From a virus (Duplodnaviria > Caudoviricetes): 64,000 bases of DNA. Below are positions 37,865-53,233 of this stretch, piece after piece. The notes beneath the pieces were generated by a model. The model was given only the letters and a program-made list of their open reading frames with translations. It searched no databases and was not told the DNA's origin. A program made the position numbers and the translations under genes. Within the stretch, counting starts at the first letter, position 1. Each line of letters begins with the position of its first letter. The stretch is taken from IMG/VR virus record IMGVR_UViG_2209111019_000003, positions 9,039-73,038 of that record; one strand, given 5' to 3'.

Positions 37865-37877
37865 CCCCGAACACGCG

Positions 37878-37915: not shown

Positions 37916-37932
37916 TCGCTGCGTTGCGGGGG

Positions 37933-38403
37933 TTAGCGCTGGTGGACGTTGGTGGTGGATTTGCCGAACCACCGGTTCTCCTGGTGGACGTGCGTCTCGT
38001 TGTGGATGCGGGGCCGGCGGGCGACGAGGCCCGGCAGGGTGCGGGCGGCGACGACGAAGCAGGCGAGCCACAGCATGGTGCCGGTGCCGACCGCGGCGAA
38101 CTCGCCGACGACCTGGGCGGCTCCCCAGCCGGCCCCCGCCGCGAGGGTTCCCCCTCCGATGCCGGCGCCGAGCATGCGCTGCGCGACGGGGTCCAACAGG
38201 GGCTGGGGGGTGAGGTCGCGGGGCTGGTAGACGGCGGGGGCCTGCGCGTATTGGGCGGGGATGGCCACGGACCGGTTGGGGTCGTAGGGGTCGGGCACGA
38301 ACACGATCGGGCCGGGGCGGTACATCTCGATGGGCTGGTGGATGGGGATGGGCTGGTAGGTGGGCTGCCCGGTCGTGGCGGGCCGCCGGTCGGGCAGCGA
38401 CAT
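37933..38403 (-). CDS. Pro-rich membrane protein, Spd-like
   Basis: AGGAG RBS; Pro-rich N-terminus, two hydrophobic segments; downstream of traB. Confidence 0.6.
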   Translation of the reverse strand: MSLPDRRPATTGQPTYQPIPIHQPIEMYRPGPIVFVPDPYDPNRSVAIPAQYAQAPAVYQPRDLTPQPLLDPVAQRMLGAGIGGGTLAAGAGWGAAQVVGEFAAVGTGTMLWLACFVVAARTLPGLVARRPRIHNETHVHQENRWFGKSTTNVHQR

Positions 38404-38412
38404 GGTGTTCTC

Positions 38413-38985
38413 CTAGATGGTGGCGGGGGTCTTGCTCGTGGCGGTCTTCGCGGTTTCGGGGAGTTGCATGTACCAGGCGCCGCCGATCGTGGCGCCGCCG
38501 TGGATCTTCCGTTCGTGGGCCTTGAGAGCAGCCGACGCGGTCTTCGCGTCGCGATACCTCGGCTTCTCGCCCTTGCCGCACGGGCACTTCCAGCCCATGA
38601 GCCCGGACCGTTTGTCGGGGCCGAAGCGGGCCTGACGGGCGACCACGGCCCGGCTGACCTTCACCTGGGACGGCTTCGCGTCGCACGACTTGGAGCCGGT
38701 GAGGAGTCCCTTCTTGTCGTGGGTGGCGATGGTGCCGGTGCCGTGGCATTTGGCGCATCCGGCGTGGGTGGTGCGGAGGATTGCCGCGTCCTTGCGGGTG
38801 CGGACCGTGGCGCGGTGTCCTTCGGCCTGGCGGGCGATGAACAGGGCCAGCCACACGGCCATCCGCTCAGGGAACGTCCTGCCGTGGGGGCGGACGGCGA
38901 GCCGCTTGCCTGCGGACGGCTTGCGCCGGGCGGGGGTGCGCTTGACGGGCTTCCGGCGGGGCGTCGGCCGCTTCTTGGCTGGCAT
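38413..38985 (-). CDS. basic protein with CxxCxGxG zinc motif
   Basis: CAKCHGTG, CPCG...HERKIH. Confidence 0.65.
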   Translation of the reverse strand: MPAKKRPTPRRKPVKRTPARRKPSAGKRLAVRPHGRTFPERMAVWLALFIARQAEGHRATVRTRKDAAILRTTHAGCAKCHGTGTIATHDKKGLLTGSKSCDAKPSQVKVSRAVVARQARFGPDKRSGLMGWKCPCGKGEKPRYRDAKTASAALKAHERKIHGGATIGGAWYMQLPETAKTATSKTPATI

Positions 38986-39027
38986 GATCGGTGACCTTCC
39001 TCTCTACGTCACATATTCGGATCAATT

Positions 39028-39155
39028 GGGCGTCTCAGGGGCGTCTTGTGGCCGTCTTGAGGGCGTCTCACCTGCGACTTCATGACTGTGGCGAGACGGC
39101 CTCAAGACGGCCCCCGGACGGGGTGAAGACGCCCCCGAGACGGGGGTCAAGACGG
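39028..39155. repeat. clt-like array of putative TraB recognition sequences
   Basis: CGTCT at 39031/39042/39053/39064, then inverted (A/G)GACG at 39094/39105/39116/39127/39138/39150; directly downstream of traB. Confidence 0.75.
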
Positions 39156-41234
39156 GGCAAACAGGGCGGCGGCGGCCTGGTCGACGAACCGCCGCTCCCA
39201 CCCGCGGGCCTGCTTCCCGTCCACGTACTCCTTGCTGGACTTCGCTGCCGGCACCAGCTCCGCGAGCAGGGCCTGCAGGCGGGCGCTGTCCTCCTCGGCC
39301 CCGGCCGCGACGATCACGGCGGTCGGCAGCCAGGCTGCCTGCCGGTCATCGAACAGCCGCAGCAGGACTGCGATCTTCGGGGCGCGCGGGTCGTCCAGTC
39401 GGTCCAGCCGATCGGCGACACTCTCCGCCGCGCGACCGTCCCGGGTGATGACGTGCAGCAGATCAGCCGCGGCCAACGAGTCGTAGTCGAACCACGGCCG
39501 GCCCGCCGCTTTGCGGTCCTTGACGGCCTGCCGGATCTGGTCGCGGTCGAAACGGTTCCAACGCCATTGGATGGGGCGCAGGAACCCGGGGCCCTGGATG
39601 TAGAACTTGCCCGCGTCGTACACCCGCTCGTCGTCCACGGCGGGCCGCAGCCGGTCCGGCCGGTAGCCGGATGCGGACGCGCCCTTCCCGAAAACCAGAA
39701 GGATGTCCTCGCTGCGGGACGCCAGCAGAACGCGGTAGGTGACGGCGCTGGCGATGGCATCACCGAGGGCGTCCTTGGTGGCCTCCTGCGCGGCGAAGAT
39801 CAGGTGGACACCGGTTTCGCGGCCAATCCGCAGCAGCTGGATGGCCAGCTCCTTGGCCTCGTCGGGCAGGAAGATGAACTCGTCGACTATGCCGTAGATC
39901 GTGGGGTCCTCCGGGGAGGGCTCCCACAGGTCGCCCATCTCCTTCCGCGTCTTGATCTTGTTGCGGGCGGAGGCGATGTCCACCAACTGCTGCAGCCGCT
40001 CCGTGCACGCCTTGCCACCCCGGATCGGCGGCAGCGCCATCGCGTCCGCGAACTCGGTCAGACCGTCCTTGACGGGGTCCATCTCGATGGCGATGGCGTC
40101 CCGGCACGCGGTGATGGCCTCAGCGATGCAGCGCAGCGCACCCTTCGTCTTCGCGGCCCCGGATGAGCCGATGACGAGCATCGACATGCCGCGCAGCCGG
40201 AACTCCAGCGGCGCCCCGTCCATGCCCCGCCCGTAGACGGCGACGTCCCGGACGGACAGGGAGTTCGGGGCGTGCACGGTCGGGCGGGGCATGTCGTCGA
40301 ACGGGTCGGAGGTGACCAGGCGCAGCACGACGTGCGCGGCCTTGCCCGGGTCGGGTTCGATGAGAGTGCCGCCCTGCTGAATGTCGAAGTGCGAGTCAAG
40401 CTGTTCGGCGGCAGCGTTGACACGGCCCGGGGTGGAGCCCTTGAGCTGCAGGTCGATCTCCCAGCCCCAGCCGCGGTTCCCAAGGACGGTGATGGAACGA
40501 GTGTCGATGCCCTCGGCTTCCAGCGCCCGCCGCACACAGTCCTGGACCTGCTGCCCGTCCTTGCACCAGGCGAGGGGGAACGGCTCCTCACCGTCGTCAA
40601 TGTCCTCCGCCGCGACGATCTCGGTCGGGCCCAGTTTGGCGTTCAACCGGTACCGCCCGTACAGGGTCAGGGCGGCGCCCGCGGCGATCGCCTCGACGGT
40701 GGGGGCGGTGGCCAGCGCCTCCAGAGTGCCGAAGCCGGCGCCCTGGTCGAGACCCCACCACGCCAGGAGGTCGGCGACCGTGAGGCCGCCGGCGAGCTTG
40801 CCGAGGAAGCCCCACCGCTGGTGCCGTGTCTGGTGGACCTTCGCCCACTTGGGGCCGTCCATGCCGCCGAGACTCTCGATGTGGTCGTGGGCGCGGACGT
40901 ACCGCCAGCCGAGGATCGTGGACGCGGCGAGGCCGTGGCACAGCCACCGGGTGACGGCCCAGCCGCCGCGCCCGGTCGCACCGGCCGCGACGATCGCGGC
41001 AGAGCCGGTCCGGGTGAGGACGGGCCGCCGGTACGGCACGTACTCGATCATGCCGGGGGCGAGGTCGTCCTCGTCGGCCGCCGGCTTGGGAGCGTCCTTG
41101 GTGAGGTCGATCGTCGGCTGCTCGATGACCTCGCCACGGATCGTCTGCGGGGGCTTCGTCGTGTCGTCGAGGGGCTTCATCCACTCGGGCACGTCGAGGT
41201 CGCCGTCGTGGTGTGCATATCCGTTGATAGTCAT
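39147..41234 (-). CDS. traB: TraB-like FtsK/SpoIIIE conjugative DNA translocase
   Basis: N-terminal TM helices, Walker A-like GSSGAAKT, Walker B YGIVDE, GRETGVHLIFAAQ, C-terminal wHTH-sized domain. Confidence 0.85.
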   Translation of the reverse strand: MTINGYAHHDGDLDVPEWMKPLDDTTKPPQTIRGEVIEQPTIDLTKDAPKPAADEDDLAPGMIEYVPYRRPVLTRTGSAAIVAAGATGRGGWAVTRWLCHGLAASTILGWRYVRAHDHIESLGGMDGPKWAKVHQTRHQRWGFLGKLAGGLTVADLLAWWGLDQGAGFGTLEALATAPTVEAIAAGAALTLYGRYRLNAKLGPTEIVAAEDIDDGEEPFPLAWCKDGQQVQDCVRRALEAEGIDTRSITVLGNRGWGWEIDLQLKGSTPGRVNAAAEQLDSHFDIQQGGTLIEPDPGKAAHVVLRLVTSDPFDDMPRPTVHAPNSLSVRDVAVYGRGMDGAPLEFRLRGMSMLVIGSSGAAKTKGALRCIAEAITACRDAIAIEMDPVKDGLTEFADAMALPPIRGGKACTERLQQLVDIASARNKIKTRKEMGDLWEPSPEDPTIYGIVDEFIFLPDEAKELAIQLLRIGRETGVHLIFAAQEATKDALGDAIASAVTYRVLLASRSEDILLVFGKGASASGYRPDRLRPAVDDERVYDAGKFYIQGPGFLRPIQWRWNRFDRDQIRQAVKDRKAAGRPWFDYDSLAAADLLHVITRDGRAAESVADRLDRLDDPRAPKIAVLLRLFDDRQAAWLPTAVIVAAGAEEDSARLQALLAELVPAAKSSKEYVDGKQARGWERRFVDQAAAALFAPS

Positions 41235-41237
41235 GGG

Positions 41238-42632
41238 TCAGGCGTCCTTCTGCGCGGTGTTCTGGCGGGCGGTTTCGGCTGCCGCGACCTTCGCGGCGGG
41301 GTGGTAGGGGGCGGTGTCGCCGGGGGTTCGGCGGGGCGGCGTGCCGCCGTTGAAGCGCCGTCCGTCGGGGGCGTTCGGGTCCCGCTTCTCACGCGGTGAC
41401 ATTTGGGAATCGACCAGTGACTTTCCGTCGTCCGCGACCGCCTCCCGGCGGGCCTGCGCAGCCCGGCTCAGCTCGTCGATTTCGGCCCGCATCCCGACGA
41501 GCTTGTAGCCCGTGACGTAGTACCAGGCGTCACCCCACAGCTGGTCGGAGACGACCGGCAGGCCACGCGCGGAACGCATGCCCTCGGCGACCTTCCAGAC
41601 GTCCTCGTGGCCGCTCTGGCGGTCGGCGTCCTTCCGCTGCTGCTCGGCCTCGGCCGCCTTCCGCTGCGCCTCCCGATCGTCCGCGGCCTTCTTCGCGGAC
41701 TGCTCCCGCTCGGTCTTCGCCGCGTCCTTCGCAGCCTGCTCCGCGGCGGCCTTCCCCTTAGCCGCGCGGGTCTCCCGCCACGACGGAATCCCGTCGGCCT
41801 TCTGCGCAATGCCGTGCTCGTAGGCCATCAGCACGATCGGCCCGCCGAGCGAGGCGATGGCACCGATGAGACCGGCGTTGAACCCGATCCGCGGGTCGTG
41901 GCTGCCGTACATGTTGATCGCGGCGGCGATGAGCGCGCCGAGCATGATGCCGATCCGGTAGGGAGCGACGTCCCGGCGGTGCGCGACGGCCCAGGCAGCA
42001 CCGAACGCCAGCACCAGCGCCAGACCTTCGAGCAGGGCCGGGGCGGCGATCAGGAAGGGCCGCTGCCGGTCCCAGAAGTGCAGGAACTGCACCGGCGCGG
42101 CGATGATCAGCCCGACGGCGTAGATGCCGCGGGCGCCCCACTTCCAGTACCGCTCGGTGCGCTGCTGCTCGGCGGTGCGGTCGGCCTTCTGCTGGGCTTC
42201 GGCCGCAGCGTCTTCTTCGGCCTTCTTCGCGGCTGCCTGTGCGGCCTTCTTCTTCGCCTCGGCCTCGGCGATCTTCGCCTCTTCAACGGCGCGCAGCCGT
42301 GCGGTGCGCAGCGCGGCCTGTTCGTTGGCGATCTCCTTGGCCTTCGCCTCCTGCACGGCGAGGATCTCAGCGGCGCGGGCGGCTGCTTCGGCCTCGACGA
42401 TCTTGGCTTTGGCTTCGGCCTCGCCGATGGCCCGCATGCGGTCGGCTTCGGCGTGCTTGATGGGGTCGTAGGCCGGCTCGGCGGCCACGGTGGGCTCCTC
42501 GATCGGTGCGGCGGGGGTCTCGTTGGTGGCGGCGGCTGGGATGCCGCCGAGGTTTATGGGCTGCCAGCCGTCCCACTTGGGTGCGGCGTGCAGCTTGCCG
42601 TTCGCGGTCCCGTTGAGGGTCTGGCTGGTCAC
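41238..42632 (-). CDS. SpdB2-like membrane spreading protein
   Basis: long Ala/Glu/Lys coiled coil, four TM helices, second coiled coil; directly upstream of traB. Confidence 0.7.
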   Translation of the reverse strand: MTSQTLNGTANGKLHAAPKWDGWQPINLGGIPAAATNETPAAPIEEPTVAAEPAYDPIKHAEADRMRAIGEAEAKAKIVEAEAAARAAEILAVQEAKAKEIANEQAALRTARLRAVEEAKIAEAEAKKKAAQAAAKKAEEDAAAEAQQKADRTAEQQRTERYWKWGARGIYAVGLIIAAPVQFLHFWDRQRPFLIAAPALLEGLALVLAFGAAWAVAHRRDVAPYRIGIMLGALIAAAINMYGSHDPRIGFNAGLIGAIASLGGPIVLMAYEHGIAQKADGIPSWRETRAAKGKAAAEQAAKDAAKTEREQSAKKAADDREAQRKAAEAEQQRKDADRQSGHEDVWKVAEGMRSARGLPVVSDQLWGDAWYYVTGYKLVGMRAEIDELSRAAQARREAVADDGKSLVDSQMSPREKRDPNAPDGRRFNGGTPPRRTPGDTAPYHPAAKVAAAETARQNTAQKDA

Positions 42633-42961
42633 TGCGGGGCTCCTTCAGGCGTCGGGGTGGCGTATGCGTGGGCGTAGTGGGCCCGGGCGCGGGTGAACTC
42701 GTCGGCGAACGCCGCGGTGATGCCGGCGCCGGCGGTCTGGCCGAGCGGGGGCTTTCCGGTGCGGTCGGCGAGGTACAGCTCCAGCCACGACGCGAGGGTC
42801 GCGGCGATGGTGACGATGACGCGGGCTATGCGGAGGACGAGGACGGCCAGGCCGAGGGCCAGGTGCGCGGCGAGCACCGTCCCGGCGATCACGGCGCGGC
42901 GGATGGCGCGGGTGGTGCGCTGCCAGCGCGTCGGCTTGGCGACGACGTAGTACGGGTGCAC
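42629..42961 (-). CDS. small hydrophobic protein, Spd-like
   Basis: AGGAG RBS, long hydrophobic helix, coupled to SpdB2-like gene. Confidence 0.6.
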   Translation of the reverse strand: MHPYYVVAKPTRWQRTTRAIRRAVIAGTVLAAHLALGLAVLVLRIARVIVTIAATLASWLELYLADRTGKPPLGQTAGAGITAAFADEFTRARAHYAHAYATPTPEGAPQ

Positions 42962-43054
42962 GGCGGGCTCCTCTCGGTTCGTGGTGGTCTTGGGTGGCGC
43001 CCCGGGCCCGAGTCGATCGGGCGCCCTCGCGGCAGGTGGCCGGGGCTGGGTGGG

Positions 43055-43243
43055 TCAGCGGTTGCGGTCGACGGCGGCGAGGATCTGGGCGTCGGTGACG
43101 CCTGCGGCTCGGGCGTTCTCGATGGCGGTCTTGTCACGGAGGCTGGTGTGGGGCTTGCTCGTGCCGTCGCTCCCGACGTAGTTGCGGGTCTCGGCTGAGG
43201 CGACGACCGCGGCGAGCGCCTCGGCCTGCTTGCGTCCGAACAT
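43055..43243 (-). CDS. small protein beginning MFGRK (copy 1)
   Basis: AAGGA RBS, 62 aa. Confidence 0.65.
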   Translation of the reverse strand: MFGRKQAEALAAVVASAETRNYVGSDGTSKPHTSLRDKTAIENARAAGVTDAQILAAVDRNR

Positions 43244-43285
43244 GGGGGTCCTTCCGGGCTGGGTGGGTGGTCAGCGGCCGCGCTT

Positions 43286-43462
43286 CTACCGGCGGTGCCA
43301 GGGGACGTTCTTCTCGGTCTCCAGCACGCGGGCGTTGAGCTCCCGGTAGGTGTCGGTCTCCTCGGTGACGCCTGTGGCCTGCTCGCGCTGCTGGTTGGCG
43401 TGCAGGGCGTTCTTGGCGTCCTTGTGGGCGGCGACGGCGTCGTTGTCCTTGCGTCCGAACAT
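43286..43462 (-). CDS. small protein beginning MFGRK (copy 2)
   Basis: AGGAGGAGG RBS, 58 aa. Confidence 0.65.
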   Translation of the reverse strand: MFGRKDNDAVAAHKDAKNALHANQQREQATGVTEETDTYRELNARVLETEKNVPWHRR

Positions 43463-43741
43463 GGGGTCCTCCTCCTGGTCGATGGCGTGGTGCGGGAAGT
43501 AGTGCTGGTCGTGGATCGGGCAGAGCAGGTGCGGGTCGGTGCAGGCGCCGATCGGGTGGGGGTCGGTCACTCGTCGGTCTCTTCGCGGACCGGGGTGGGC
43601 ACGGGGGCGAGGGCGTTGCGCGCGTAGTCGCGGGCGGCCTGGGCGAATTCCTCGTCGGCGGTCATGTCGTGTAGTCGTCGTCGCAGGGCGGGATGGGGTC
43701 GCCGTGGCCCTGGCCGCACCAGTCGCAGGCCGTCGCGGCAC

Positions 43742-44011
43742 TCACCGGACACCGCCCGTCTTGGTCCAGCAGGCGGCGGCGTGGGCTTGGGCGATCTCCC
43801 GGACCGCCGGCAGCCATTCGTTGACCCTGGCCGTCTCCTGTTCGGGCGTGTCGGTGGTGAGCGCGCCGGTGTTCCGTCGCCCCCACCAGTCGCAGCCGAA
43901 GCAGTCCGCGATGAGGTCGCCGGTCTCGGTCAGGTAGGAGACGTTGACGGTTTCGCCGCCTGAGGTGGTCGCCTGGGCGAGGACCCCCGCCGCCACGGCT
44001 ACCGCGCTCAC
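43742..44011 (-). CDS. hypothetical protein
   Basis: CFGC...AQAHAAAC; coupled ORF chain. Confidence 0.55.
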   Translation of the reverse strand: MSAVAVAAGVLAQATTSGGETVNVSYLTETGDLIADCFGCDWWGRRNTGALTTDTPEQETARVNEWLPAVREIAQAHAAACWTKTGGVR

Positions 44012-44175
44012 TGGGCACCGCCCTTGCCGGGCTCGACGTCCAAGACGCGCTCCCCGTAGGCGTCGCAGGCGGCGTTGGCGGCGATGAGCTGCCCGTAGGC
44101 GCGGCGGGCATCGGCACGCTGCTTCGGGGTGAGGGCCGGGTTGGTCATGCGGGCCTGCAGCTCGGTGGCGGTCAT
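44008..44175 (-). CDS. small hypothetical protein
   Basis: MTATELQARMTNPAL; 4-nt overlaps on both sides; not in ORF track. Confidence 0.5.
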   Translation of the reverse strand: MTATELQARMTNPALTPKQRADARRAYGQLIAANAACDAYGERVLDVEPGKGGAQ

Positions 44176-44531
44176 GACTTGACCCCCGCTCCAGCGGCAG
44201 CGGCGTACCAGCCGGTGGCCGTCATGATGTCCTGTACCTCAAGGAAGGTGCGGCCCGCGACCCGCTCCCACGCCTCGAAGTCGGCCCACTGCGAGCCGGC
44301 ACGGTAGGCCACGATCGCGTCCAAGCAGCGTTCGGCTACCCGGCGCACGTCATCGTTTCCACCGATCGCCTGGTGGATCCCGAACGGCAGGGTCGGGTCC
44401 CAGCCGTCGCGTTCCAGTAGCGCCAGGCCGTTGGCCAGGACGTCCATGACCTGGGTCGGAGCGATCGCGGTGCCGGACGGACCGCGCCACATGGCGTCGG
44501 TGGGGGGCGGCGGACTCGGCGGGCGGCTCAT
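44172..44531 (-). CDS. hypothetical protein (DUF6197-like)
   Basis: LLERDGW...AWERVAGRTFLEV pattern. Confidence 0.55.
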   Translation of the reverse strand: MSRPPSPPPPTDAMWRGPSGTAIAPTQVMDVLANGLALLERDGWDPTLPFGIHQAIGGNDDVRRVAERCLDAIVAYRAGSQWADFEAWERVAGRTFLEVQDIMTATGWYAAAAGAGVKS

Positions 44532-44893
44532 TCGGCACCGTCCTGCATGCCGATGTGGCTGAGGCCGGCGTGAGCCCAGCCGATCGACTTGTAGAGGGCC
44601 TGCGCGTCGCCGACAGCCAACTGCAGCCCCTCGTAGACGAGGCCCAGTTCAGTGGCGAGCGCGTCACGGTCGGAGCGCAGGTTCCCGTCGCGGTCGAGCT
44701 TGTCGACGGCCTGCCGGGTCATCGTCAACGCCTGCGGGAGCATCGACGCGAGGTGCGCGAGGTGCCCGACCAGGACGTAGGCGTCACCCGGGGTGGGGAG
44801 CCCGGTGTACAGGGCGTGGTTGATGCTGCGGATACTCTCGGCCGCGGCCTCGGCTGCCACGACAGCCACCGGCGTGTCCGTCCCGGCGCTCAT
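44528..44893 (-). CDS. hypothetical protein
   Basis: ATGA-coupled helical ORF. Confidence 0.6.
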   Translation of the reverse strand: MSAGTDTPVAVVAAEAAAESIRSINHALYTGLPTPGDAYVLVGHLAHLASMLPQALTMTRQAVDKLDRDGNLRSDRDALATELGLVYEGLQLAVGDAQALYKSIGWAHAGLSHIGMQDGAE

Positions 44894-45141
44894 GCGGCGG
44901 CGCTGTCGGCGTAGGCGCGGGCGGCGGCGAGGCCCTCCAGGATCGCGTCCCGGTGGTCACGGACCCGGCGGTACGCCTCGTCCATGATCGGGTCGGAGTC
45001 GCCGGCCTGGGCAACGACCGGGCGGACGTAGGACACGGCAGCGTGCGCGGCCTTGTCGGCCGGTGACTGCGGGTACGACGGGGCGATGCGGGCGAGGTGA
45101 TCGGCGCGGGAGCGCACGCCGGTAGAGTTGGCGATAGCCAT
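44890..45141 (-). CDS. hypothetical protein, first gene of leftward transfer operon
   Basis: AAGGGA RBS. Confidence 0.6.
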   Translation of the reverse strand: MAIANSTGVRSRADHLARIAPSYPQSPADKAAHAAVSYVRPVVAQAGDSDPIMDEAYRRVRDHRDAILEGLAAARAYADSAAA

Positions 45142-45268
45142 CAGGGGTTCCCTTCAAGAAGCCTGGTGGTAGGGCCGGCCCGCGAGGTAGGAGTCGCGGT
45201 GTCCGGCCCGTCTTTTGTTGTGGGGGGCGCCCGCGGACTGGGTCCGGTAGGAGTGGGCTCCCGGCCGA

Positions 45269-45290
45269 TTCTCAAATTGGGATTTGAGAA
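45269..45290. promoter_or_regulatory. palindromic operator in divergent promoter region of transfer operon
   Basis: TTCTCAAAT-TGGG-ATTTGAGAA, perfect AT-rich 9-bp inverted repeat. Confidence 0.65.
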
Positions 45291-45396
45291 CCTGCTGATC
45301 CGAAGGTAGGTGCTCACGTGACGGCTCGTCAAGCTCCGGACGAGTGTTATCAAGCCACATCTTGAGACGGCGCCGGATTCGCCCTACCCTCAACCC

Positions 45397-45639
45397 ATGG
45401 CCAACTCCCTCGACACCGCGCTCGCACCCCTCGCCGACCACATCAGAGCCATCGGCGACCACCGCGAGCGCTACGAAGAGATCGAGGCAGCCGAACAACA
45501 CTTCCTCGCCCTCAAGCGCGCACTCCTGCAGGAGGTCGCCCTCGGACTGCGAGCCCAAGGCAAGAAGTGGAAAGAGATCGGCGACACCCTGGGCGGCGTC
45601 ACTTACCAGCGCGCCTTCCAGATGGGCCGTGGCCAGTGA
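45397..45639 (+). CDS. small HTH regulator (Kor-like)
   Basis: GKKWKEIGDTLGGVTYQRAFQM; divergent from transfer operon. Confidence 0.75.
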   Translation: MANSLDTALAPLADHIRAIGDHRERYEEIEAAEQHFLALKRALLQEVALGLRAQGKKWKEIGDTLGGVTYQRAFQMGRGQ

Positions 45640-45693
45640 ATCGGTCATGCCACCGAGTCAACTGCTGCCGCCCCAGGGACACGATGAGCCCGG

Positions 45694-45753
45694 AGTGCAC
45701 CGCCAGTGCAGTCCCGGTGCAGGCAGTGCAGCCGTAGTGCAGTAGCAGTGCAA
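45694..45753 (+). repeat. six phased GTGCA direct repeats
   Basis: GTGCA at 45695, 45706, 45717, 45726, 45737, 45748. Confidence 0.75.
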
Positions 45754-45785
45754 CTCCCCGCCACCAGGCGCCAAGGGGGCCCAGG

Positions 45786-46421
45786 ATGGACGTCATCAGC
45801 ACGTGGACCGGACGGTCAGCGTGCGCACTCCAGTCGGCCCTCCGCATGACCAACGAGGCATTCGCCGACCGCCTCGGCGTCCACGTCCGCACCGTCGCCA
45901 CATGGCACGCAGACCCCGAGAAGGAACCCCGGGCCGAAATCCAGGCGGCACTCGACACGGCATACGAGAAGGCAGGGGGCGCGGTGCAGCAGCGATTCGC
46001 AGCCCTGTCACGCCCGGCCGTGCCCGCCGCGGAGGTTCAGGCCCTGCGCGTCGCCATCGCCATCGTGGTGCGCGGCGACGACGTCCTCCTCGTCTGCCGG
46101 CGCGGCGACGATGCCCTGTCGTGGCAGTTCCCCGCCGGCATGGTCAAGCCCGGCCGCGCCCCCGAGGGTGTCGCCGTACAGGAGACCCTCGCCGAGACCG
46201 GCGTGCACTGCGCCGTCCGCGCCCACCTTGGCAGTCGCATCCACCCGGCCACTGGCGTCCTCGCCTCGTACCAGCTGTGCGACTACCTGACCGGCGACGC
46301 CGCGAACTTGGACGAGGTCGAGAACATGGCCGTCGCCTGGGTGTCCCGAGCTGATCTGCCGCGTTTCATTCCCGCCGACCGGATCTTTCCGCCAGTGCTC
46401 ACCGCCTTGGAGGCAGCATGA
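45786..46421 (+). CDS. XRE-HTH plus degenerate Nudix fusion protein
   Basis: MTNEAFADRLGVHVRTVATW; degenerate Nudix box AGMVKPG...VQETLAETGV. Confidence 0.85.
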   Translation: MDVISTWTGRSACALQSALRMTNEAFADRLGVHVRTVATWHADPEKEPRAEIQAALDTAYEKAGGAVQQRFAALSRPAVPAAEVQALRVAIAIVVRGDDVLLVCRRGDDALSWQFPAGMVKPGRAPEGVAVQETLAETGVHCAVRAHLGSRIHPATGVLASYQLCDYLTGDAANLDEVENMAVAWVSRADLPRFIPADRIFPPVLTALEAA

Positions 46422-46828
46422 CCACCGCCGACCAGCCCGTCGTCTCCATGGCGATCATCGCCCACGAGGGGGCCGTCCTGATGATCCGCCGGCGCCAGCG
46501 CGAGGGCGAGCTGCTGTGGGCGTTCCCGGGCGGCGCGGTCGAGGCGGGGGAGGCGCCGGAGCAGGCCGCGGTCCGCGAGGTCGCCGAGGAAGTCGGTCTG
46601 ACGGTCGCCGCCGTGCGGGTGCTGGGTGAGCGCGTCCACCCGAAAACCGGCCGGCCCATCAGCTACACCGCCTGCACCGTGGTCGACGGCGAGCCGACCG
46701 TCCTCGACGCGGAAGAGATCGCCGAGGTCGCCTGGGTCAAGCACAGCGAGATCCCCGCGCACGTGCCCTACGGCCTGTACGACCCGGTCCAGGCGTACCT
46801 CGACGAGGTACTCGCCCCCTCCGCCTGA
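46418..46828 (+). CDS. Nudix hydrolase (MutT/Pif-like)
   Basis: canonical box GGAVEAGEAPEQAAVREVAEEVGL. Confidence 0.92.
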   Translation: MTTADQPVVSMAIIAHEGAVLMIRRRQREGELLWAFPGGAVEAGEAPEQAAVREVAEEVGLTVAAVRVLGERVHPKTGRPISYTACTVVDGEPTVLDAEEIAEVAWVKHSEIPAHVPYGLYDPVQAYLDEVLAPSA

Positions 46829-46841
46829 CCCCGCACACGCC

Positions 46842-46871
46842 ACCGCCCCGACGCCGTAGCGCCGGGGCGGT
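46842..46871. terminator. terminator hairpin
   Basis: ACCGCCCCG...CGGGGCGGT between convergent genes. Confidence 0.65.
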
Positions 46872-46903
46872 TTGCTGCGTGTGCCGGGGTTCGGCGCGGC
46901 GGG

Positions 46904-47086
46904 TCACGCGGGGGTGTTGCGGCGGTCAGCAGCCCGGGTGGCCGGGGGCGCGTTGACGGCGGTGAGTGCGGCGACTTCGGCGGCCTCGGCGGCGCACAGC
47001 GTGCAGCCGGGGGTGAGCCCGTCGTGGCCGTGCTCCCAACGCTGGTGGATGCTGGCCATAGCCGCACGCAGTTCGGACACGAACAC
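46904..47086 (-). CDS. small hypothetical protein
   Basis: AGGAG RBS, HDGLTPGCTLC. Confidence 0.5.
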   Translation of the reverse strand: MFVSELRAAMASIHQRWEHGHDGLTPGCTLCAAEAAEVAALTAVNAPPATRAADRRNTPA

Positions 47087-47113
47087 GACAGGCTCCTCTC
47101 GGGCGGGCGGGAC

Positions 47114-47287
47114 TCAGGCGGGGCGGGTGATGGTGCGCTTCCACTGCTGACGCTCGCCCCGCTTGCGGGCACGGCGGGCGGTCTTGCGGTCGCGGCCGGG
47201 GGCCTGTCCGCAGCAGTGGCAGTCCCTGCCGCCGGGCCCGTCGGGGCAACGCCGGCCGATCATCGGGGCCTTCGCGTCACGCGTCAT
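47114..47287 (-). CDS. small basic Cys-rich protein
   Basis: AAGGA RBS; MTRDAKAPMIGRRCPDGPGGRDCHCC; not in ORF track. Confidence 0.5.
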   Translation of the reverse strand: MTRDAKAPMIGRRCPDGPGGRDCHCCGQAPGRDRKTARRARKRGERQQWKRTITRPA

Positions 47288-47306
47288 GGCGTGTGGTCCT
47301 TCCTGG

Positions 47307-47852
47307 TCAGGCGGCGAGGGTGGCGTCGCCGTTGATGACGGGTTCGCGTCCGGCGGCGGTGAGCATGAGCAGGTTGCGCCAGCCGCGCCCGTTGTCGGGC
47401 TGGGTGTTGTCGGTGATCAGGCCGCGCTGCTGGAGGGCGGCGATGGTCTGTTCGGTGGCGTTGATCGGGAGGTCGTTGGCGAGTCGGGCGAGTGCCCGCT
47501 TCATCGCGGGGGTGAGGTTGGGGCTGGCCATGGCGGGCTCCTGCGGGTCGATGGTCATGCGGTCGGTGCGGAATGTGGTGTCCTCGCCGTCGCGCCAGTC
47601 GTAGGCGCGGCAGGTGATGCGCCCGGCGTTGGTGGGGTCGAGGCGGCGGGGCGTGATGTTGCGGACGCTGACAGTTCCGGTGGTGTCGACGTACCTGATC
47701 CGCACGGTCGCGCCCGCGTCGATGGCCCGGTAGAGGGCGACGAGGAGTCGGTAGTGGGCCCCGCGGGCGGCGGTTACCAGGCTGGGGCCGGCGGTGAGTG
47801 CGGCACGGATCGTGCGGCGGATCAGGCGGGCGGTACGGGCACGAGCATTCAC
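47307..47852 (-). CDS. WYL-domain protein fused in frame to a small C-terminal ORF
   Basis: AIDAGATVRIRY...RNITP...RAYDWRDGEDTTFRTDRM; internal AGGAG plus ATG at 47531. Confidence 0.75.
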   Translation of the reverse strand: MNARARTARLIRRTIRAALTAGPSLVTAARGAHYRLLVALYRAIDAGATVRIRYVDTTGTVSVRNITPRRLDPTNAGRITCRAYDWRDGEDTTFRTDRMTIDPQEPAMASPNLTPAMKRALARLANDLPINATEQTIAALQQRGLITDNTQPDNGRGWRNLLMLTAAGREPVINGDATLAA

Positions 47853-47920
47853 GGGATCCCCCAGGCGGTGCGGTGCGGGTGGTTCGGGTGCCCGCCCCGG
47901 GAAGGGGCGGGCGGAGTGGG

Positions 47921-48220
47921 TCAGCGGAGGTAGGCCAGCGGATTGACGGGGGAGTCCGGGGTGCACTCCGCGACCAGCCAGCGGTCGAACCGGTTGGTGC
48001 GGGCGCCGAGGTAGGCCGGGCTCTTCTCTTCCTCGCGGTCCCGGTCGTTCATCCGGCTTTCCAGCTCGTCCATGAGCCAGCCGCGGGTGATCTCGACGGC
48101 TCGGCCGGACTGGCCGTTGGTGAGCATCCAGGTCTCGGCGAGCCGCTCGTTCGACAGGCGGCCGATGGAGGCGCGTGCGATGGCCTCGGACTGCTTGGCG
48201 TTGTCCTGAATGCTTCCCAT
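47921..48220 (-). CDS. hypothetical protein
   Basis: GGGAG RBS; RGWLMDELESR. Confidence 0.7.
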   Translation of the reverse strand: MGSIQDNAKQSEAIARASIGRLSNERLAETWMLTNGQSGRAVEITRGWLMDELESRMNDRDREEEKSPAYLGARTNRFDRWLVAECTPDSPVNPLAYLR

Positions 48221-48266
48221 GTCCGTCTCCCTGCTCGCCGCTTCCTTGCTGATGTCTCCACTTTAG

Positions 48267-48362
48267 CCAAGCGGCTTGGGCAATACAAGTAGGCCAAGCA
48301 ACTTGGTCAAGATTCTTTAGGGATGACCAAGCTTGCCCCATGGCTATGGCCAAGCGGCTTGT
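48267..48362. promoter_or_regulatory. array of CCAAG-N3-CTTGG operators in divergent promoter
   Basis: 48267-48279, 48294-48306, 48350-48362 and a shortened copy at 48327-48335. Confidence 0.75.
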
Positions 48363-48377
48363 GCAACCATGTGGGGT

Positions 48378-48677
48378 ATGACCGACTACAGCCCGAGCCC
48401 GCAGCTCGCCGCAGCGCTGGCCGAATACGAAAAGGCGCAGGCGGCAGAAGAATCAGCCCGGACCAACCTTCGGGCCTCAGTCGCCGACGACCTCAAGACC
48501 TACGACGTGACCAACGAGGTCATCGCGCCCCATCTGCCATGGTCCAGCGAGACCGTCCGGGGTATTGCCCGCGAGTACGGCGTGCCTCGCAAGAGGAAGC
48601 CCACCGTCAGGTCGATCAAGCCGAAGAAGCGCACCGGCACGCACACCCCCGCCCCGCCCGCCGCAGAGGAGAGTTGA
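48378..48677 (+). CDS. small HTH-like regulator
   Basis: TNEVIAPHLPWSSETVRGIARE; adjacent to operator array. Confidence 0.7.
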   Translation: MTDYSPSPQLAAALAEYEKAQAAEESARTNLRASVADDLKTYDVTNEVIAPHLPWSSETVRGIAREYGVPRKRKPTVRSIKPKKRTGTHTPAPPAAEES

Positions 48678-48680
48678 GCC

Positions 48681-48938
48681 ATGACCGAGACTTCCGAGGC
48701 CAGGCACTGGCTGTACGTGGCCATCCGCGCTAACGCCAAGGTCAACGCGGTCCGCGAGCTACACCGCCAGGTGATGGCTGGTGGCGTGGCCATGGGCATT
48801 TGCCAGGAGTGCGGCAGGCCGTCTCCGTGCCCGACTGCTCAAGTCGTTGCTCGCGAGCCTGACGGCCCGTGCGACTGCGGACCGGACTGCCCCAAGAACA
48901 TCCCCGTTGCCCCGTCCGACGCGAGGGGCGGCAAGTGA
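48681..48938 (+). CDS. Cys-rich hypothetical protein
   Basis: VRELH...CQECG..SPCPT. Confidence 0.6.
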   Translation: MTETSEARHWLYVAIRANAKVNAVRELHRQVMAGGVAMGICQECGRPSPCPTAQVVAREPDGPCDCGPDCPKNIPVAPSDARGGK

Positions 48939-49636
48939 GCGAGACGGACCGCGCCGAGATGGTGCGTTACGACCAGCTCGCCGCCCGCGTGTACGGGGAG
49001 CGCCGCATGCCGTCAGGCACGCGGGATCTGATCCTCGCCCTCGGCTGGGTGACGCTCCGGGACCCGCGACGCCACGACCCGACCGTCGGCATCTGGGCCC
49101 GGGCAAGGGATGTGATGAACGCCGACAACAAGACCATGTGGCAGCTCATCAAGGACGACGCTCCCCGGTACGAACACGACTGGCACGCCGACCCCCACGG
49201 TTGCCAAGCCCCCATGGTTCGCATCGAGCGGCTCTGCGAGCGCAATGCGGTCGACCACTTCACTGAGGCCGACACCGCGACGGGCCGATTCCGCACTTGG
49301 GGCTTCTGTTCCCGGCCCCGCTGCCAGGCCTACGGCAAGGGCATCTACGAGCGGGCGCAGCGCTCCAACGCTGCCGCCCCTGCGGCGATCCCCAACACGG
49401 GCGGCCTGCTGCCGCTGTTCTTCGAGTGGAACTGGGAGGCGAAGTACGCCAAGGCCGACCCGCTGTGGACGGCTCCGTCTTACGGCCTGTCTGCTGACGA
49501 GTGGCCGACTATCGCTGGCGAGGAGCCGGTGTACGCCTTCCCGAAACTGCGGCTGATCACCTCAGGTGGCGAGCTTGTCGGCTGGCCCTACCCGCGCCTC
49601 TTCCCCGCCCCGTCCGACCCGGGGAGCGGCACGTGA
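48935..49636 (+). CDS. hypothetical protein
   Basis: GTGA-coupled, good codon bias. Confidence 0.65.
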   Translation: MSETDRAEMVRYDQLAARVYGERRMPSGTRDLILALGWVTLRDPRRHDPTVGIWARARDVMNADNKTMWQLIKDDAPRYEHDWHADPHGCQAPMVRIERLCERNAVDHFTEADTATGRFRTWGFCSRPRCQAYGKGIYERAQRSNAAAPAAIPNTGGLLPLFFEWNWEAKYAKADPLWTAPSYGLSADEWPTIAGEEPVYAFPKLRLITSGGELVGWPYPRLFPAPSDPGSGT

Positions 49637-49827
49637 GCGCCCGGGAACCCGTGGTGGTCGAGTTGACCGTGGACGAGTTCCACGCAGCGGCCCGGCGCGC
49701 CCTGGCCACCGTGGGCCTCACCTACGCCGAACTAGCCGCCCAAGCAGCCCGCCACCAGTTCGCCTCGGACCAGGCACGGAAGGTCTGGTCGTGCATCGGC
49801 GACACCCTGCCGGTGGAGTTCACGTGA
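49633..49827 (+). CDS. small hypothetical protein
   Basis: GTGA-coupled. Confidence 0.55.
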   Translation: MSAREPVVVELTVDEFHAAARRALATVGLTYAELAAQAARHQFASDQARKVWSCIGDTLPVEFT

Positions 49828-49920
49828 GCAGCCGCAACGCAGGCAATGACGGCCCGGCCGAACATGGTCAACTCGCCCTGGTGGCCTGCGAGTACGCGTA
49901 AAATGGCCCCATAAAAGCAT

Positions 49921-49951
49921 CGGCCGGACGGGCACTAACACCGTCCGGCCG
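49921..49951. promoter_or_regulatory. hairpin upstream of Rep-like gene
   Basis: 11-bp stem CGGCCGGACGG/CCGTCCGGCCG. Confidence 0.55.
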
Positions 49952-50097
49952 CTTGCTTGGTGAGCGGGTTACCAGCCCGCTCGTGGCGCGCCCACCTCGA
50001 AGTAAGAAGCGCCCTACAACCGCCCCTGCAAGGAAGAGGTTGCCCTCTTGAAGATACAGACCATCCCGCGCCGTCGCCAGCAGACGGGTCGGCTGCG

Positions 50098-50892
50098 ATG
50101 AGGACGTTCCGCACCATGCCGCCGGAGGGCTGGGTCCCAGTAGCGAACGCGACCGCGCAGAACCGGCGACTGAGCTGGCGCGCCAAAGGTCTCCTACTGG
50201 ACATGCTCAGCTTCCCCGACGGCTACGAGATCACCTTCGACCGCCTGATGGCCATGGCCAAGGCCGCCGGCGACCCCGACGTTGAAGGCAGGGACGCGAT
50301 GCGCCGTGCGATGCAGGAGCTGGAGCGCAAGGGATACATCGTTCACGGCCGCCGGTCAGTGAAGGACGAGACGACAGAGCGCGTGCTCTGGCGAACGGAG
50401 ACCGCCGTATGTGACCTTCCCGGGCGCATCAATGTCCGGGGTACGGGTTTTCAGGAAGCCGGAGATTCAGGAGGCCGGTCGTCCAGTACGACGGAGGACC
50501 AGGAACTCTCTAACAACACGGATCTATACAAGAAGGATCAGCAAGACGAGCTGGGCAAATCTTCCTCCGCGCTCGCTTCCGCTCGCGCGGGGCAGAGGAC
50601 GAGCCTGCAAGATCGCCGCGATGTTCTCGCCGACCTCTACGCCGCCGCCGACAAGCTCGACGAGCAGCGGCTACGCAGGCACCTGCTGACGTTCGAACGC
50701 CGACGCCCCCGCATCTACCGCGAATGCAGGCAGGCAGCGTTGGGTCAGATCGGCGGGCAGGCGGGCGGCAAGCAGTTGATGGCCGGAGCGGACGGCGTGC
50801 GGATCATCGACCTACTGGCGTTCAAGTACGCGCTCCAGCACTACTCCGACAACCTGCCCGACTGGCTCGTGAAGCTGCCACGGGCCGCCTAA
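50098..50892 (+). CDS. replication initiator-like wHTH protein
   Basis: RRLSWRAKGLLLDMLSFPDGY...EGRDAMRRAMQELERKGY, typical N-terminus of phage/plasmid initiators. Confidence 0.65.
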   Translation: MRTFRTMPPEGWVPVANATAQNRRLSWRAKGLLLDMLSFPDGYEITFDRLMAMAKAAGDPDVEGRDAMRRAMQELERKGYIVHGRRSVKDETTERVLWRTETAVCDLPGRINVRGTGFQEAGDSGGRSSSTTEDQELSNNTDLYKKDQQDELGKSSSALASARAGQRTSLQDRRDVLADLYAAADKLDEQRLRRHLLTFERRRPRIYRECRQAALGQIGGQAGGKQLMAGADGVRIIDLLAFKYALQHYSDNLPDWLVKLPRAA

Positions 50893-50945
50893 CCCGCTCC
50901 TTCGCCCCGTCTGCCGCTTCGTGTGGTGGGCGGGGCGCTGTCGTG

Positions 50946-51344
50946 TCAGGGGGTCGGGTTGCAGACGGTGCAGGGCCCGGTGCCGTCGAAGGCGAGTTGC
51001 CCGCGGGCTTGGTCGGCGTCGAGCGGCATCAGGCGCGCCCAGTCGGCGGGCTCGTCGAGGGTCCAGCAGTCCGCGTCGTGGATGGTCGACCCGCCGTTGG
51101 GCCGGCGTTCGTCGACTTCCATCACGTACCGGGGCCCGGCCGCCTGCGCGGGTTCGCGGGGCACGGCGCTGTAGTCCTCGCCGGCCACCTTGCCGATCGC
51201 ATCCGCGGGGATCTGGATGACGGCCTGCGCCCACCAGCTGCCGTCCGGGCCTTGCCGCCAGGCGAGGAGCCGGCCTGGGGTGGTGCGGCCGTTGGGCAGG
51301 CGCACCTCGACCCGGGGCGGGGGAGCATCGGGACGGTCGGACAT
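50946..51344 (-). CDS. DUF6233-like protein
   Basis: IHDADCW...PCTVCNP; probably leaderless (TAAGCT -10 just upstream). Confidence 0.7.
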   Translation of the reverse strand: MSDRPDAPPPRVEVRLPNGRTTPGRLLAWRQGPDGSWWAQAVIQIPADAIGKVAGEDYSAVPREPAQAAGPRYVMEVDERRPNGGSTIHDADCWTLDEPADWARLMPLDADQARGQLAFDGTGPCTVCNPTP

Positions 51345-51352
51345 GTGTTCGA
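51337..51352. promoter_or_regulatory. LexA (SOS) box
   Basis: TCGAAC-ACAT-GTCCGA on minus strand, one mismatch to actinobacterial TCGAAC-N4-GTTCGA; overlaps start codon. Confidence 0.7.
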
Positions 51353-51388
51353 GCTTAGTGCAGGGCGGCGCCCCCGCCAGTGCAGCTC

Positions 51389-51613
51389 CTACGCCTCCGC
51401 CGCGGCCCGCAGCGCCTTCTGCCCGGTCACGGTGTCCCACGGGGTGCCGGACCGCGCCGCCCGCAACACGCGCATCGCATCCAGCTCCGCCTGCCGTAGC
51501 TCCCGCCGGCGCTCCACGGACACGGCCTCGGTCTCGGCCATCAACGTCGCAGTCGCGGCGTCGAAGGCGCGTTGCGCGGCGAGCAGGTCTGCGGGGATCG
51601 GGGTATCAGCCAT
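51389..51613 (-). CDS. small hypothetical protein
   Basis: helical ORF IPADLLAAQRAF. Confidence 0.6.
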   Translation of the reverse strand: MADTPIPADLLAAQRAFDAATATLMAETEAVSVERRRELRQAELDAMRVLRAARSGTPWDTVTGQKALRAAAEA

Positions 51614-51648
51614 GCCGCGACCCTACGGGCCGGGTACGACAACCCCAC

Positions 51649-51825
51649 CTATGCCGCGAGCGCCGCTTCCTCGCGTGCTTTCGCGGCCTGCTCCTCGGCG
51701 ACCAGCCGCACATACTCGGCGAGCTCCGTCGGCGTCCAGCGGGCCCGCTTCGCCAACGCCCGGATCTCCGCGTTCACCAGCGCAGCAGAGCGCACGGGAC
51801 CACCAGCGGCACGGTTATCGGGCAT
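51649..51825 (-). CDS. small hypothetical protein
   Basis: VRSAALVNAEIRAL...EYVRLVAE; not in ORF track. Confidence 0.55.
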   Translation of the reverse strand: MPDNRAAGGPVRSAALVNAEIRALAKRARWTPTELAEYVRLVAEEQAAKAREEAALAA

Positions 51826-51888
51826 GCGATCACTTTACGGGCCCCATGTGACAGACGAGCACACGCGAGACTGGACGGCATATGCCCG

Positions 51889-52155
51889 TCAACGCGCAGC
51901 CGGCGGGACGTCAGCAACGAACGTGCCCCGCTGCGGCACCACCGTCACGATCCCGTCCTCAACCAGCACAGCAATCGCCCGGCGGACCGTCGTCCTCGCC
52001 AGCCCGTACTGCTGCACCAGATCGTTCTCGCTGGCGATCCGCCGGCCCGGCGCCCAATCCCCGCGCCCGATCCGCGCCTGGAGGATCCCGGCGAGCTGCC
52101 GATAGGGCGTCACGGGCCCCTCGTGATCGATTGCCGCGTCCGGATCCCAGGTCAT
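51889..52155 (-). CDS. GntR-family wHTH regulator (DNA-binding domain only)
   Basis: PYRQLA...IASENDLVQQYGLARTTVRRAIAVL...RGTFV. Confidence 0.9.
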   Translation of the reverse strand: MTWDPDAAIDHEGPVTPYRQLAGILQARIGRGDWAPGRRIASENDLVQQYGLARTTVRRAIAVLVEDGIVTVVPQRGTFVADVPPAAR

Positions 52156-52489
52156 GTGATCGACGCTAAGCGTCACCCTACGAAGCGGCATTTCCAGCTA
52201 CGTCGCTGAACGTAGCGATACAAGGCGCTACATTTGGAGCACAAGAAACCCCCGCGACCGCGCGAACGGCCCGGGGGCACGGCCACCCGAGGTGAGGCGG
52301 GCGACATATGGATGCTAACGGCGCAGACGCAGGACCGACGAGGCCACGGCCAGTCATCATGCAGTCCACGCGCGTCCAGCCCGCACGCGGCACCCGCCCC
52401 GCGTACATCGTCCACGCCCCCGGCGCCGACGTACCCGCCGAAGCGCCGGCCTGCCCCGCGGACTGCCCGACGTGCGGGGGGCGAGCCTG

Positions 52490-52684
52490 ATGGTCCCCTG
52501 CATCAAACACGGCGGGTTCGTGCCCGAGCGGGACGCGCACCTCATCGGCTGGGACGACACCGGCTCCGGGCCCGGCGTGGCCCGCTACGCGTGCACCGAC
52601 TGCGTCCGCGAACACGGCCTCGTACCCCTCGCGTTCACCGGCCGCCGGGACGCCGCACCCGTACCCCCGGGGGATGCCGCATGA
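52490..52684 (+). CDS. small Cys-rich protein
   Basis: GSGPGVARYACTDC; one of three coupled mini-ORFs divergent from GntR. Confidence 0.5.
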   Translation: MVPCIKHGGFVPERDAHLIGWDDTGSGPGVARYACTDCVREHGLVPLAFTGRRDAAPVPPGDAA

Positions 52685-52817
52685 GCCCGCTGCCCATCCG
52701 TTGCGCCCGCTGCCAGCAGCCCCTCACCCGGGACCAGGCCGTCGAGGTCGACGAGGCACAGGCCACCGCCTCGTCCCTCGTCTACATCCACCGCGGCCCG
52801 TGCCCACCCCGGTGACC

Positions 52818-52860
52818 GCCTGCCGTCGCCCCGCCCACCCCCGTCAGGGCGACGGCAGGC
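52818..52860. terminator. terminator hairpin
   Basis: 14-bp stem GCCTGCCGTCGCCC/GGGCGACGGCAGGC. Confidence 0.65.
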
Positions 52861-52996
52861 ACCTCTACCCCTGTTCGGGGGTGACAGCAGGTCAAGGCAT
52901 ATGCGCAGCCGAAAGATTCACCCGTGTGGGTTACAGATGCACCGTTGCCCCCAGTGCTGGAAGTGCGGGACGGTGAAGGCGGTTCTTACTCCAGGG

Positions 52997-53233
52997 TCAG
53001 TCGCGCACCAGGTGACTCAGGGGTACACCGAGCGCGTCAGCGATCAGATAGAGGTGGTCCAATCGTGCGGACTGCAGTCCCAGCTCGGTGCGCACGATGG
53101 TCACGCGGCCTAGCCCGGAGAGTTCGGCGAGCTTCTCCTGGCTTAGCTCTCGAGCTTCTCTGGCGTGGCGGATCCGGGCTCCGACCGTCCGGCGCCGCCG
53201 CAGCAGGTGCTCGGGGACTTGATCGGAAACCAC
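52997..53233 (-). CDS. XRE-family HTH regulator
   Basis: IRHAREARELSQEKLAELSGLGRVTIVRTE...IADALGV. Confidence 0.88.
   Translation of the reverse strand: MVSDQVPEHLLRRRRTVGARIRHAREARELSQEKLAELSGLGRVTIVRTELGLQSARLDHLYLIADALGVPLSHLVRD

Follow-up and report, generated by a model that had tools for sequence, protein, structure and literature searches.

A cassette built like Streptomyces plasmid transfer operons in a temperate siphovirus genome and related prophages: a putative TraB/clt/Spd-like system for phage DNA

The closest described systems for the locus treated here are the transfer and spread operons of Streptomyces plasmids and integrative elements. In elements of the pSVH1/pSAM2 type, an FtsK-like translocase binds repeated 8-bp motifs through a C-terminal DNA-recognition domain, SpdB2 is a coiled-coil protein with four transmembrane (TM) helices, the spd operon is translationally coupled, exclusion in pSAM2 is Nudix-based, and one TraB serves both primary transfer and spreading in pSVH1. 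According to PMC3583192, the clt site of plasmids consists of repeats located at the 3′ end of tra or within it, and conjugal transfer of the plasmid-phage pZL12 is stated to require a tra gene and two neighbours. Actinomycete integrative conjugative elements (AICEs) are delimited, in PMC3218068, by an integrase (Int), a Rep protein (RepSA, RepAM or Prim-Pol) and a Tra protein (PF01580) within about 9–24 kb and by having no virion genes. Here, we describe a cassette found in the IMG/VR virus record IMGVR_UViG_2209111019_000003, a 73,038-bp genome with a G+C content of 69%, of which a window of 64 kb (bases 9039–73038) was analysed; positions are those of the window unless stated otherwise. As judged from its genes, the cassette is built like the transfer and spread operons of Streptomyces plasmids, with an FtsK-family ATPase, an SpdB2-like membrane protein and a phased repeat array side by side (Table 1). 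On balance we consider it probable, from sequence, structural models and analogy, that it is a phage-borne TraB/clt/Spd-like system moving double-stranded phage DNA across hyphal membranes. The observations beneath this reading are the parts, their folds and order, their conservation, and the co-variation of the repeat motif with the ATPase.

A precedent is known in pZL12, the tailed phage ZL12 (GQ919031, 90,435 bp), which like the window combines a tailed-phage genome with an FtsK/SpoIIIE-like Tra gene (pZL12.71c) and adjacent membrane genes. The tra region of pZL12 also holds a GntR gene and a Nudix-like gene, the latter 29.5% identical to that of the window, and the two genomes share a Cre-like recombinase, lysis genes and methylases at 33–58% identity. 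They differ in that the pZL12 prophage is an extrachromosomal plasmid that has ParA/ParB, whereas the window carries an integrase and an attP lying in tRNA-His. Neither ParA/ParB nor a plasmid Rep of the kind that maintains pZL12-type phage-plasmids was found among 60 window and genome open reading frames (ORFs) scanned with Pfam, a set in which the small ORFs are not all included. The plasmid pFP1 (NC_006912.1) resembles the cassette in having a membrane protein, of family DUF2637 in pFP1, directly upstream of an FtsK-like gene whose product is 34% identical over 60% of the window ATPase, and homologues at 34% identity occur on 45 Streptomyces/Kitasatospora plasmids including pFP1. Unlike the window, pFP1 is a 39-kb plasmid devoid of virion genes and equipped with a divergent GntR regulator. 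Among phages, those of the Samisti12 type (Stanwilliamsviridae) carry a protein of the same PHROG family (phrog_12531) as the window ATPase, with 31–37% identity over the motor domain.

An earlier note on this DNA, made from its letters alone, had taken the block for the gene set of a pSAM2-type AICE inside a tRNA-integrating siphovirus. The siphovirus with a tra/spd/clt module fits the anatomy, and the cassette recurs in other prophages; the AICE label had to be given up. An integrase is present, and neither a Rep family nor PF01580 is matched in an element of 73 kb that holds terminase, portal and capsid, that is, the full virion module which pSVH1 and pSAM2 lack. A GntR regulator, assumed in the note, matched no ORF of 37–56 kb in Pfam or NCBIfam, and a WYL-domain protein stands there instead. 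The supposed Rep-like gene matched none of the RepSA, RepAM or Prim-Pol families; it has PHROG matches alone (Table 1), with nothing in Pfam, NCBIfam or PDB sequence searches, and is retained as a candidate DNA-binding or replication-initiator-like gene.

The central component of the cassette is the ATPase, which matches phrog_12531 (‘FtsK/SpoIIIE-like’) at E 2.2e-74 and has plasmid_TraB (NF041214) as its best NCBIfam model (E 2.1e-7). An AF2 model built on 31 homologues is confident at residues 215–480 and 555–695 and of low confidence at 356–361, and in a Foldseek search it retrieved the FtsK motor (6t8b/2iut) at the top with E 3.7e-12 (about 1e-11) and TM scores of 0.53–0.63 normalised to the target, followed by the conjugation coupling protein TcpA and then EccC. 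Residues G359, K362, D451 and E452 are invariant across 31 sequences of the family, in which the variant P-loop pattern is general. The C-terminal 100 aa, folded separately on 12 homologues, gave a model with pLDDT 91 and the topology H-b-H-H-b-b, whose nearest folds (Cdt1, TubR, ORC, MarR) are all winged helices, at weak E-values of 0.03–0.3. The family is large: of 8000 candidates scored, 343 proteins reached E ≤ 1e-3, and full-length Streptomyces proteins of 50–93% identity are numerous among them.

Directly 3′ of the ATPase gene and before the next gene lies the repeat array, and its last copy overlaps the ATPase stop codon. In spanning this codon it agrees in position with plasmid clt sites, and the adjacent clt-like array described in the earlier note was recovered as such. 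The 73-kb genome has 23 strict copies of the motif, seven of them within about 110 bp at the array; simulated sequences held 14–26 strict copies genome-wide. Each of the 22 homologues examined has a phased two-block array on its 3′ side, in which most spacings are multiples of about 11 bp and whose core motif differs by lineage (GTCT, GTCC, GATCAG, TGCTCG, TGCTCA, CGGTC or CCGGCG). When the loci were grouped by eye into motif classes, the ATPase C-terminal 100 aa were 60.0% identical between members of the same class (59 pairs) and 25.1% identical between classes (194 pairs), and the motor domain 77.4% and 55.6%. The corresponding values were 54.7% and 53.6% for the 190-aa protein encoded downstream and 42.3% and 44.2% for the SpdB2-like protein, so that motif class tracks the ATPase C-terminus and does not track either neighbouring gene. 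Such a pattern would be predicted for a cognate protein–site pair. Many loci with GTCT arrays (among L001–L035) also share a conserved stretch, CCTATTGATCCAyATATGTGA...GAGAGGA, between the array and the 190-aa gene, which looks like the promoter and ribosome-binding site of that gene.

The SpdB2-like gene ends 3 nt from the ATPase start, and its product has an Ala/Glu/Lys-rich N-terminal coiled coil, four hydrophobic segments (169–271) and a C-terminal domain. It shares its position next to the ATPase gene and this architecture with SpdB2, for which PMC4447253 describes a coiled coil at the N-terminus, then four TM helices and a C-terminal domain. A comparison of its family with the DUF2637 protein of pFP1 gave an hhalign probability of 93.8% (E 1.8e-7), indicating remote homology, and UniRef gives one homologue the name DUF2637. 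Actinophages have been reported to carry SpdB2 homologues, which were suggested to spread phage DNA. The 4-TM coiled-coil gene and the further small membrane genes that the earlier note listed were both borne out by hydropathy, and its single Nudix hydrolase turned out to be a pair: a protein of 211 aa whose Nudix domain is C-terminal and a Nudix hydrolase of 136 aa, together at 45786–46828 (Pfam NUDIX E 1e-13 and 9.5e-24).

The cassette is, by sequence comparison, widespread among Streptomyces prophages and not a one-off capture by one phage. In the genome scan a single-protein query found no relative and an alignment-based query found 18, and the resulting set of 23 loci comprises five IMG/VR viral contigs of 75–90 kb, of which one has terminal repeats, and 18 loci in actinomycete genomes, 16 of them from Streptomyces and the other two from Catenulispora and Streptantibioticus. 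The module consists of the 110-aa, SpdB2-like, ATPase and 190-aa proteins, often accompanied by the Nudix pair; across the 23 loci the ATPase was present in 22, the SpdB2-like and 190-aa proteins in 21 each, the 110-aa protein in 17 and Nudix in 10. Linkage to head genes, which the note had proposed to examine in relatives, was found in seven loci (L005, L020, L021, L026, L029, L030 and L035), where genes of terminase size, portal and capsid lie 4–8 kb downstream, with Pfam support from SPP1_portal in L026 and L021 and from Phage_portal and Phage_capsid in L035; three of the other 16 are contigs of 4.7–10.9 kb, too short for neighbours. On the complete chromosome NZ_CP109330.1 the cassette sits mid-way in a prophage of about 58 kb in which the stretch running from the repressor to the tail and lysis genes is syntenic with that of the IMG/VR provirus G005, by 44 tblastn matches. 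Homologous cassettes of isolate chromosomes have phage early genes on one side and terminase on the other. The window TerL was found in none of the five IMG/VR records and its capsid, weakly, in one. Because the head genes of the relatives differ from those of the window, the cassette appears to travel with at least three head-gene types. In addition to its cassette ATPase, G005 has a gene for another, distantly related FtsK-like protein (799 aa; G005:C1:4237-6636; 26% identity over 186 aa).

The phage around the cassette has, as known from its genes alone, the complete gene set of a temperate tailed phage (Caudoviricetes), with terminase, portal, capsid, tail, lysis, integrase/attP and repressor genes. 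Genes were called with the aid of third-position G+C (GC3). Downstream of the capsid gene follow a 1549-aa ORF of tape-measure size and tail genes, and the full siphovirus that the note had described is thus accounted for. The ends of the record are arbitrary: one ORF spans the end-to-start junction, its TGA overlapping the GTG of the first gene, and it follows that the molecule is circular or circularly permuted with attP intact, and not a prophage excised from a chromosome. The attP core occurs once in the window and is matched in four of five Streptomyces genomes searched, four of the five matched places overlapping a tRNA gene; ARAGORN found no tRNA gene in the window, which holds of tRNA only the core fragment. 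Since this core is the 3′ end of tRNA-His and an integrase stands beside it, the sequence supports a temperate Streptomyces siphovirus integrating at tRNA-His, as had been foreseen together with a repressor/Cro-type arrangement, for which divergent helix-turn-helix (HTH) genes were identified. In one Streptomyces genome an attP-like second site with the phage-side arm included lies about 4 kb downstream of tRNA-His (L042; G010:C47:330107-330197) and probably represents either the distal junction of a related integrated element or what is left of one. The prophage Samy was considered as the same phage and rejected, having a serine integrase and 61 kb according to PMC11302927.

The borders of the cassette are narrower than the 15.3-kb block that had been delimited in the earlier note. 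An approximately 80-nt hairpin repeat, with a core match of 27 of 29 nt, stands in two copies between convergent genes; the note had reported no flanking direct repeat and no integrase belonging to the block, of which the former is incorrect for the conserved core and the latter was confirmed, there being neither an integrase nor a second attP core inside the cassette. Because the two copies bracket the conserved core, the conserved cassette is taken to be the approximately 9 kb from 37.9 to 46.8 kb, and the remainder of the block falls outside it. The repeat occurs only twice in the 73-kb genome and in none of the related loci, and it may be a mark of past recombination or the copies may merely be related terminators. 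From 37933 to 45141 all genes are on the minus strand in a coupled operon, in most cases with 4-nt overlaps, and no ORF of the cassette is disrupted, GC3 being high in all of them.

If the cassette works as this anatomy suggests, the C-terminal winged-helix-like domain of the ATPase would dock on the array as an analogue of clt, the ATPase would form a membrane ring together with the SpdB2-like protein, and this ring would pump the double-stranded genome of the phage, once excised or while replicating, through hyphal membranes or cross-walls. The outcome would be a virion-independent route for the phage within the mycelium and possibly between mycelia. Many Streptomyces prophages could then spread through and between mycelia in the absence of particles and escape receptor-based resistance, and phages would be less sharply set apart from conjugative elements in the genus that is the chief producer of antibiotics; related prophages are available in isolate strains, as exemplified by the chromosome NZ_CP109330.1. 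A bolder extension, which we put forward tentatively and as possible rather than probable, is that a large class of Streptomyces temperate phages may be dual-mode, moving both as virions and as double-stranded DNA by a TraB-like pump, with the motif/winged-helix classes as specificity groups and the Nudix pair as transfer immunity; at least seven such classes would keep co-resident elements from mobilising each other.

Several observations weigh against a TraB/clt/Spd-like system. The claim of a TraB/FtsK translocase stands for the FtsK-type motor, for its fold and for plasmid_TraB as best NCBIfam model, and does not stand for TraB membership, the score being 29.8 bits against an equivalog cut-off of 800; the ATPase also matches no Pfam family at E ≤ 0.01, hence not FtsK_SpoIIIE (PF01580), and none of 28 members of the SpdB2-like family matches DUF2637 at E ≤ 1, so that the window departs from pSVH1 and pSAM2 in all three models. 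The Walker A motif has Ala in place of the canonical Gly before Lys, the three helices predicted at 92–198 of the ATPase N-terminus are weakly hydrophobic (Kyte–Doolittle maxima 1.0–1.4), and the winged-helix matches are faint. Since array and ATPase gene overlap at the 3′ end of the latter, physical linkage by itself could explain the co-variation of motif and C-terminus. Between pZL12.71c and the window ATPase no similarity was detectable (tblastn, 1e-4). In a search of 50,697 records of isolated phages, the ATPase matched only 89 phages of the Samisti12 type, of 120–135 kb and at no more than 37% identity, and the SpdB2-like protein matched none; in Samisti12, the one record of that type examined, the FtsK-like gene is isolated among tRNA genes, and no SpdB2-like gene is annotated beside it. 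As the matches in isolated phages are distant or nil, there is no virion-proven close relative carrying the cassette in that collection, from which records near the window may be missing. The record is, moreover, apparently derived from a metagenome. In public sequencing runs, 14 rows held part of the record with a best share of 0.20, all of them soil or rhizosphere metagenomes with no RNA run among them, and the four runs examined gave pieces up to about 2.2 kb, 90–99% alike, none bridging the cassette borders. The body of literature searched contained no paper on integrated temperate phages with a TraB-like gene and a clt-like array; in papers on Streptomyces phages, FtsK-like genes are mentioned in passing with guesses on replication or development.

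Other explanations were weighed against the same evidence. The cassette could act only within infected or lysogenised mycelium, passing phage DNA across vegetative cross-walls with no donor-to-recipient conjugation, and the Samisti12-type phages, which the sources consulted do not describe as conjugative and which keep a related FtsK-like gene, speak for such a restriction, as does a statement by Thoma et al. The cassette nevertheless has the full plasmid-like set including the clt-like array and Nudix genes, and the pSVH1 TraB is described as serving both transfer and spreading, two roles that sequence does not separate; we regard the restricted role as unlikely. Distinctly less probable, in our estimate, is prophage defence or exclusion, in which the membrane ATPase, its membrane partners and the Nudix enzymes would block incoming phage or plasmid DNA. 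This role is made possible by matches of both Nudix proteins to PDC-S07, a candidate defence family of PADLOC (E 1.8e-19 and 9.8e-8), which also count against a transfer function, and by a weak match of the ATPase to mad8 (E 6.5e-6), to which a sub-threshold SLATT_1 match of the 110-aa protein and the nearby WYL protein may be added. No defence model, however, matched the SpdB2-like protein or other operon genes, and a lineage-specific phased array in all 23 sources would be expected of a cis-acting site on the element’s own DNA and not of an ATPase serving in defence.

The deviant Walker A motif, GSSGAAKT, together with the low AF2 confidence at residues 356–361, raises the question of whether the cassette is inherited cargo, inactive in the window phage and unable to hydrolyse ATP. 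The same P-loop pattern is family-wide, with its four key residues invariant in 31 sequences, and the cassette has kept intact, high-GC3 ORFs and been retained across diverged phages, all of which makes inactivity improbable. An assembly chimera, or a prophage and a separate AICE in tandem that were co-excised as one circle, would agree with the apparent metagenomic origin, with the want of reads or contigs bridging the borders and with the hairpin pair around the cassette. It is at odds with the ORF that spans the record ends and overlaps the next gene, with the single attP core, with the lack of an integrase inside the cassette and with isolate chromosomes that place the homologous cassette between phage early genes and terminase, and we hold it to be very improbable. 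A phage-borne system that would transfer phage DNA is the reading we retain.

Table 1. Features of the phage genome and of the cassette, in window coordinates.
Feature	Position	Strand	Remarks
TerL	5813–7369		47% identity to terminases annotated in KimJongPhill and Yara, two Streptomyces phages
Portal	7469–9010		37% identical to annotated portal genes of KimJongPhill/Yara
Major capsid protein	10862–11833		52% identical to annotated capsid genes of KimJongPhill/Yara
GH25 lysin	34434–35318
Tail-fibre-like gene	37028–37864
Left hairpin-repeat copy	37857–37935		Between convergent genes; predicted fold -63.8 kcal/mol
156-aa membrane protein	37933–38403	-	Downstream of array
190-aa basic Cys-rich protein	38413–38985	-	Downstream of array; DUF6251 match below cut-off
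clt-like array	39028–39155		About ten copies of an 8-mer (SCGTCTY / RAGACGS), 11-bp spacing, two opposed blocks
TraB-like FtsK-family ATPase, 695 aa	39147–41234	-	In the motor, Walker A is the variant GSSGAAKT and Walker B the canonical VDEF
SpdB2-like protein, 464 aa	41238–42632	-	Stop 3 nt from ATPase start
Upstream operon part	42629–45141	-	110-aa membrane protein (42629–42961) and about nine small ORFs, most with 4-nt overlaps (GC3 calls, hydropathy)
Divergent unit	45397–46828	+	80-aa protein, 11-bp tandem repeat, two Nudix genes facing the operon
Right hairpin-repeat copy	46821–46900		Between convergent genes; predicted fold -58.9 kcal/mol
WYL-domain protein	47307–48353	-	Pfam WYL E 4.8e-6 and 1.4e-5; PADLOC WYL; start codon uncertain
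Candidate DNA-binding or replication-initiator-like protein	50098–50892	+	PHROG matches only, E 9e-11 to 9e-9, N-terminal part
attP core, 23 nt	53586–53608	+	Identical to 3′ end of tRNA-His(GTG) in Streptomyces genomes
Tyrosine integrase	53728–54981	+	Pfam Phage_integrase E 2.6e-19
Divergent HTH genes	55383–56363

The remaining genes in and beside the cassette offer fewer family assignments. The ORFs of the upstream operon part gave weak, sub-threshold matches only, to SLATT_1 for the 110-aa protein and to DUF6197. In the divergent unit the first Nudix protein has an extra N-terminal part of 85 residues with no family match, and just upstream of its gene, in the divergent control region, an 11-bp tandem repeat of 4.6 copies (45704–45752) has the consensus CAGTGCAGTCG. 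The WYL protein is, by its domain, a possible regulator, and homologues of the candidate replication-initiator-like protein occur near the cassette in two further loci (L019 and L031). Rfam over 36–57 kb gave only sub-threshold matches at chance level.

To the right of the integrase and HTH region lie RecT, an exonuclease and three DNA methylases. A second tyrosine recombinase gene is found far from attP at 1991–3019 on the minus strand (Pfam Phage_integrase E 3.9e-7); its product is 39% identical to pZL12.36c, has homologues in G004 and in the prophage G006, and may be a Cre/Xer-like dimer resolvase. The early region (L017; genome positions 5559–9387, partly window 1–349) carries three DNA methyltransferase genes, two of the N6/N4 and one of the C5 type, and the G006 prophage holds a gene of 71% identity to one of the three. 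A glycosylation cassette occupies the minus strand from 26201 to 32869, between the tail and lysis genes, and encodes GT2 and GT1 glycosyltransferases, an NAD-dependent epimerase/dehydratase, an S-adenosylmethionine (SAM) methyltransferase and a GIY-YIG-like (T5orf172/MUG113) protein.

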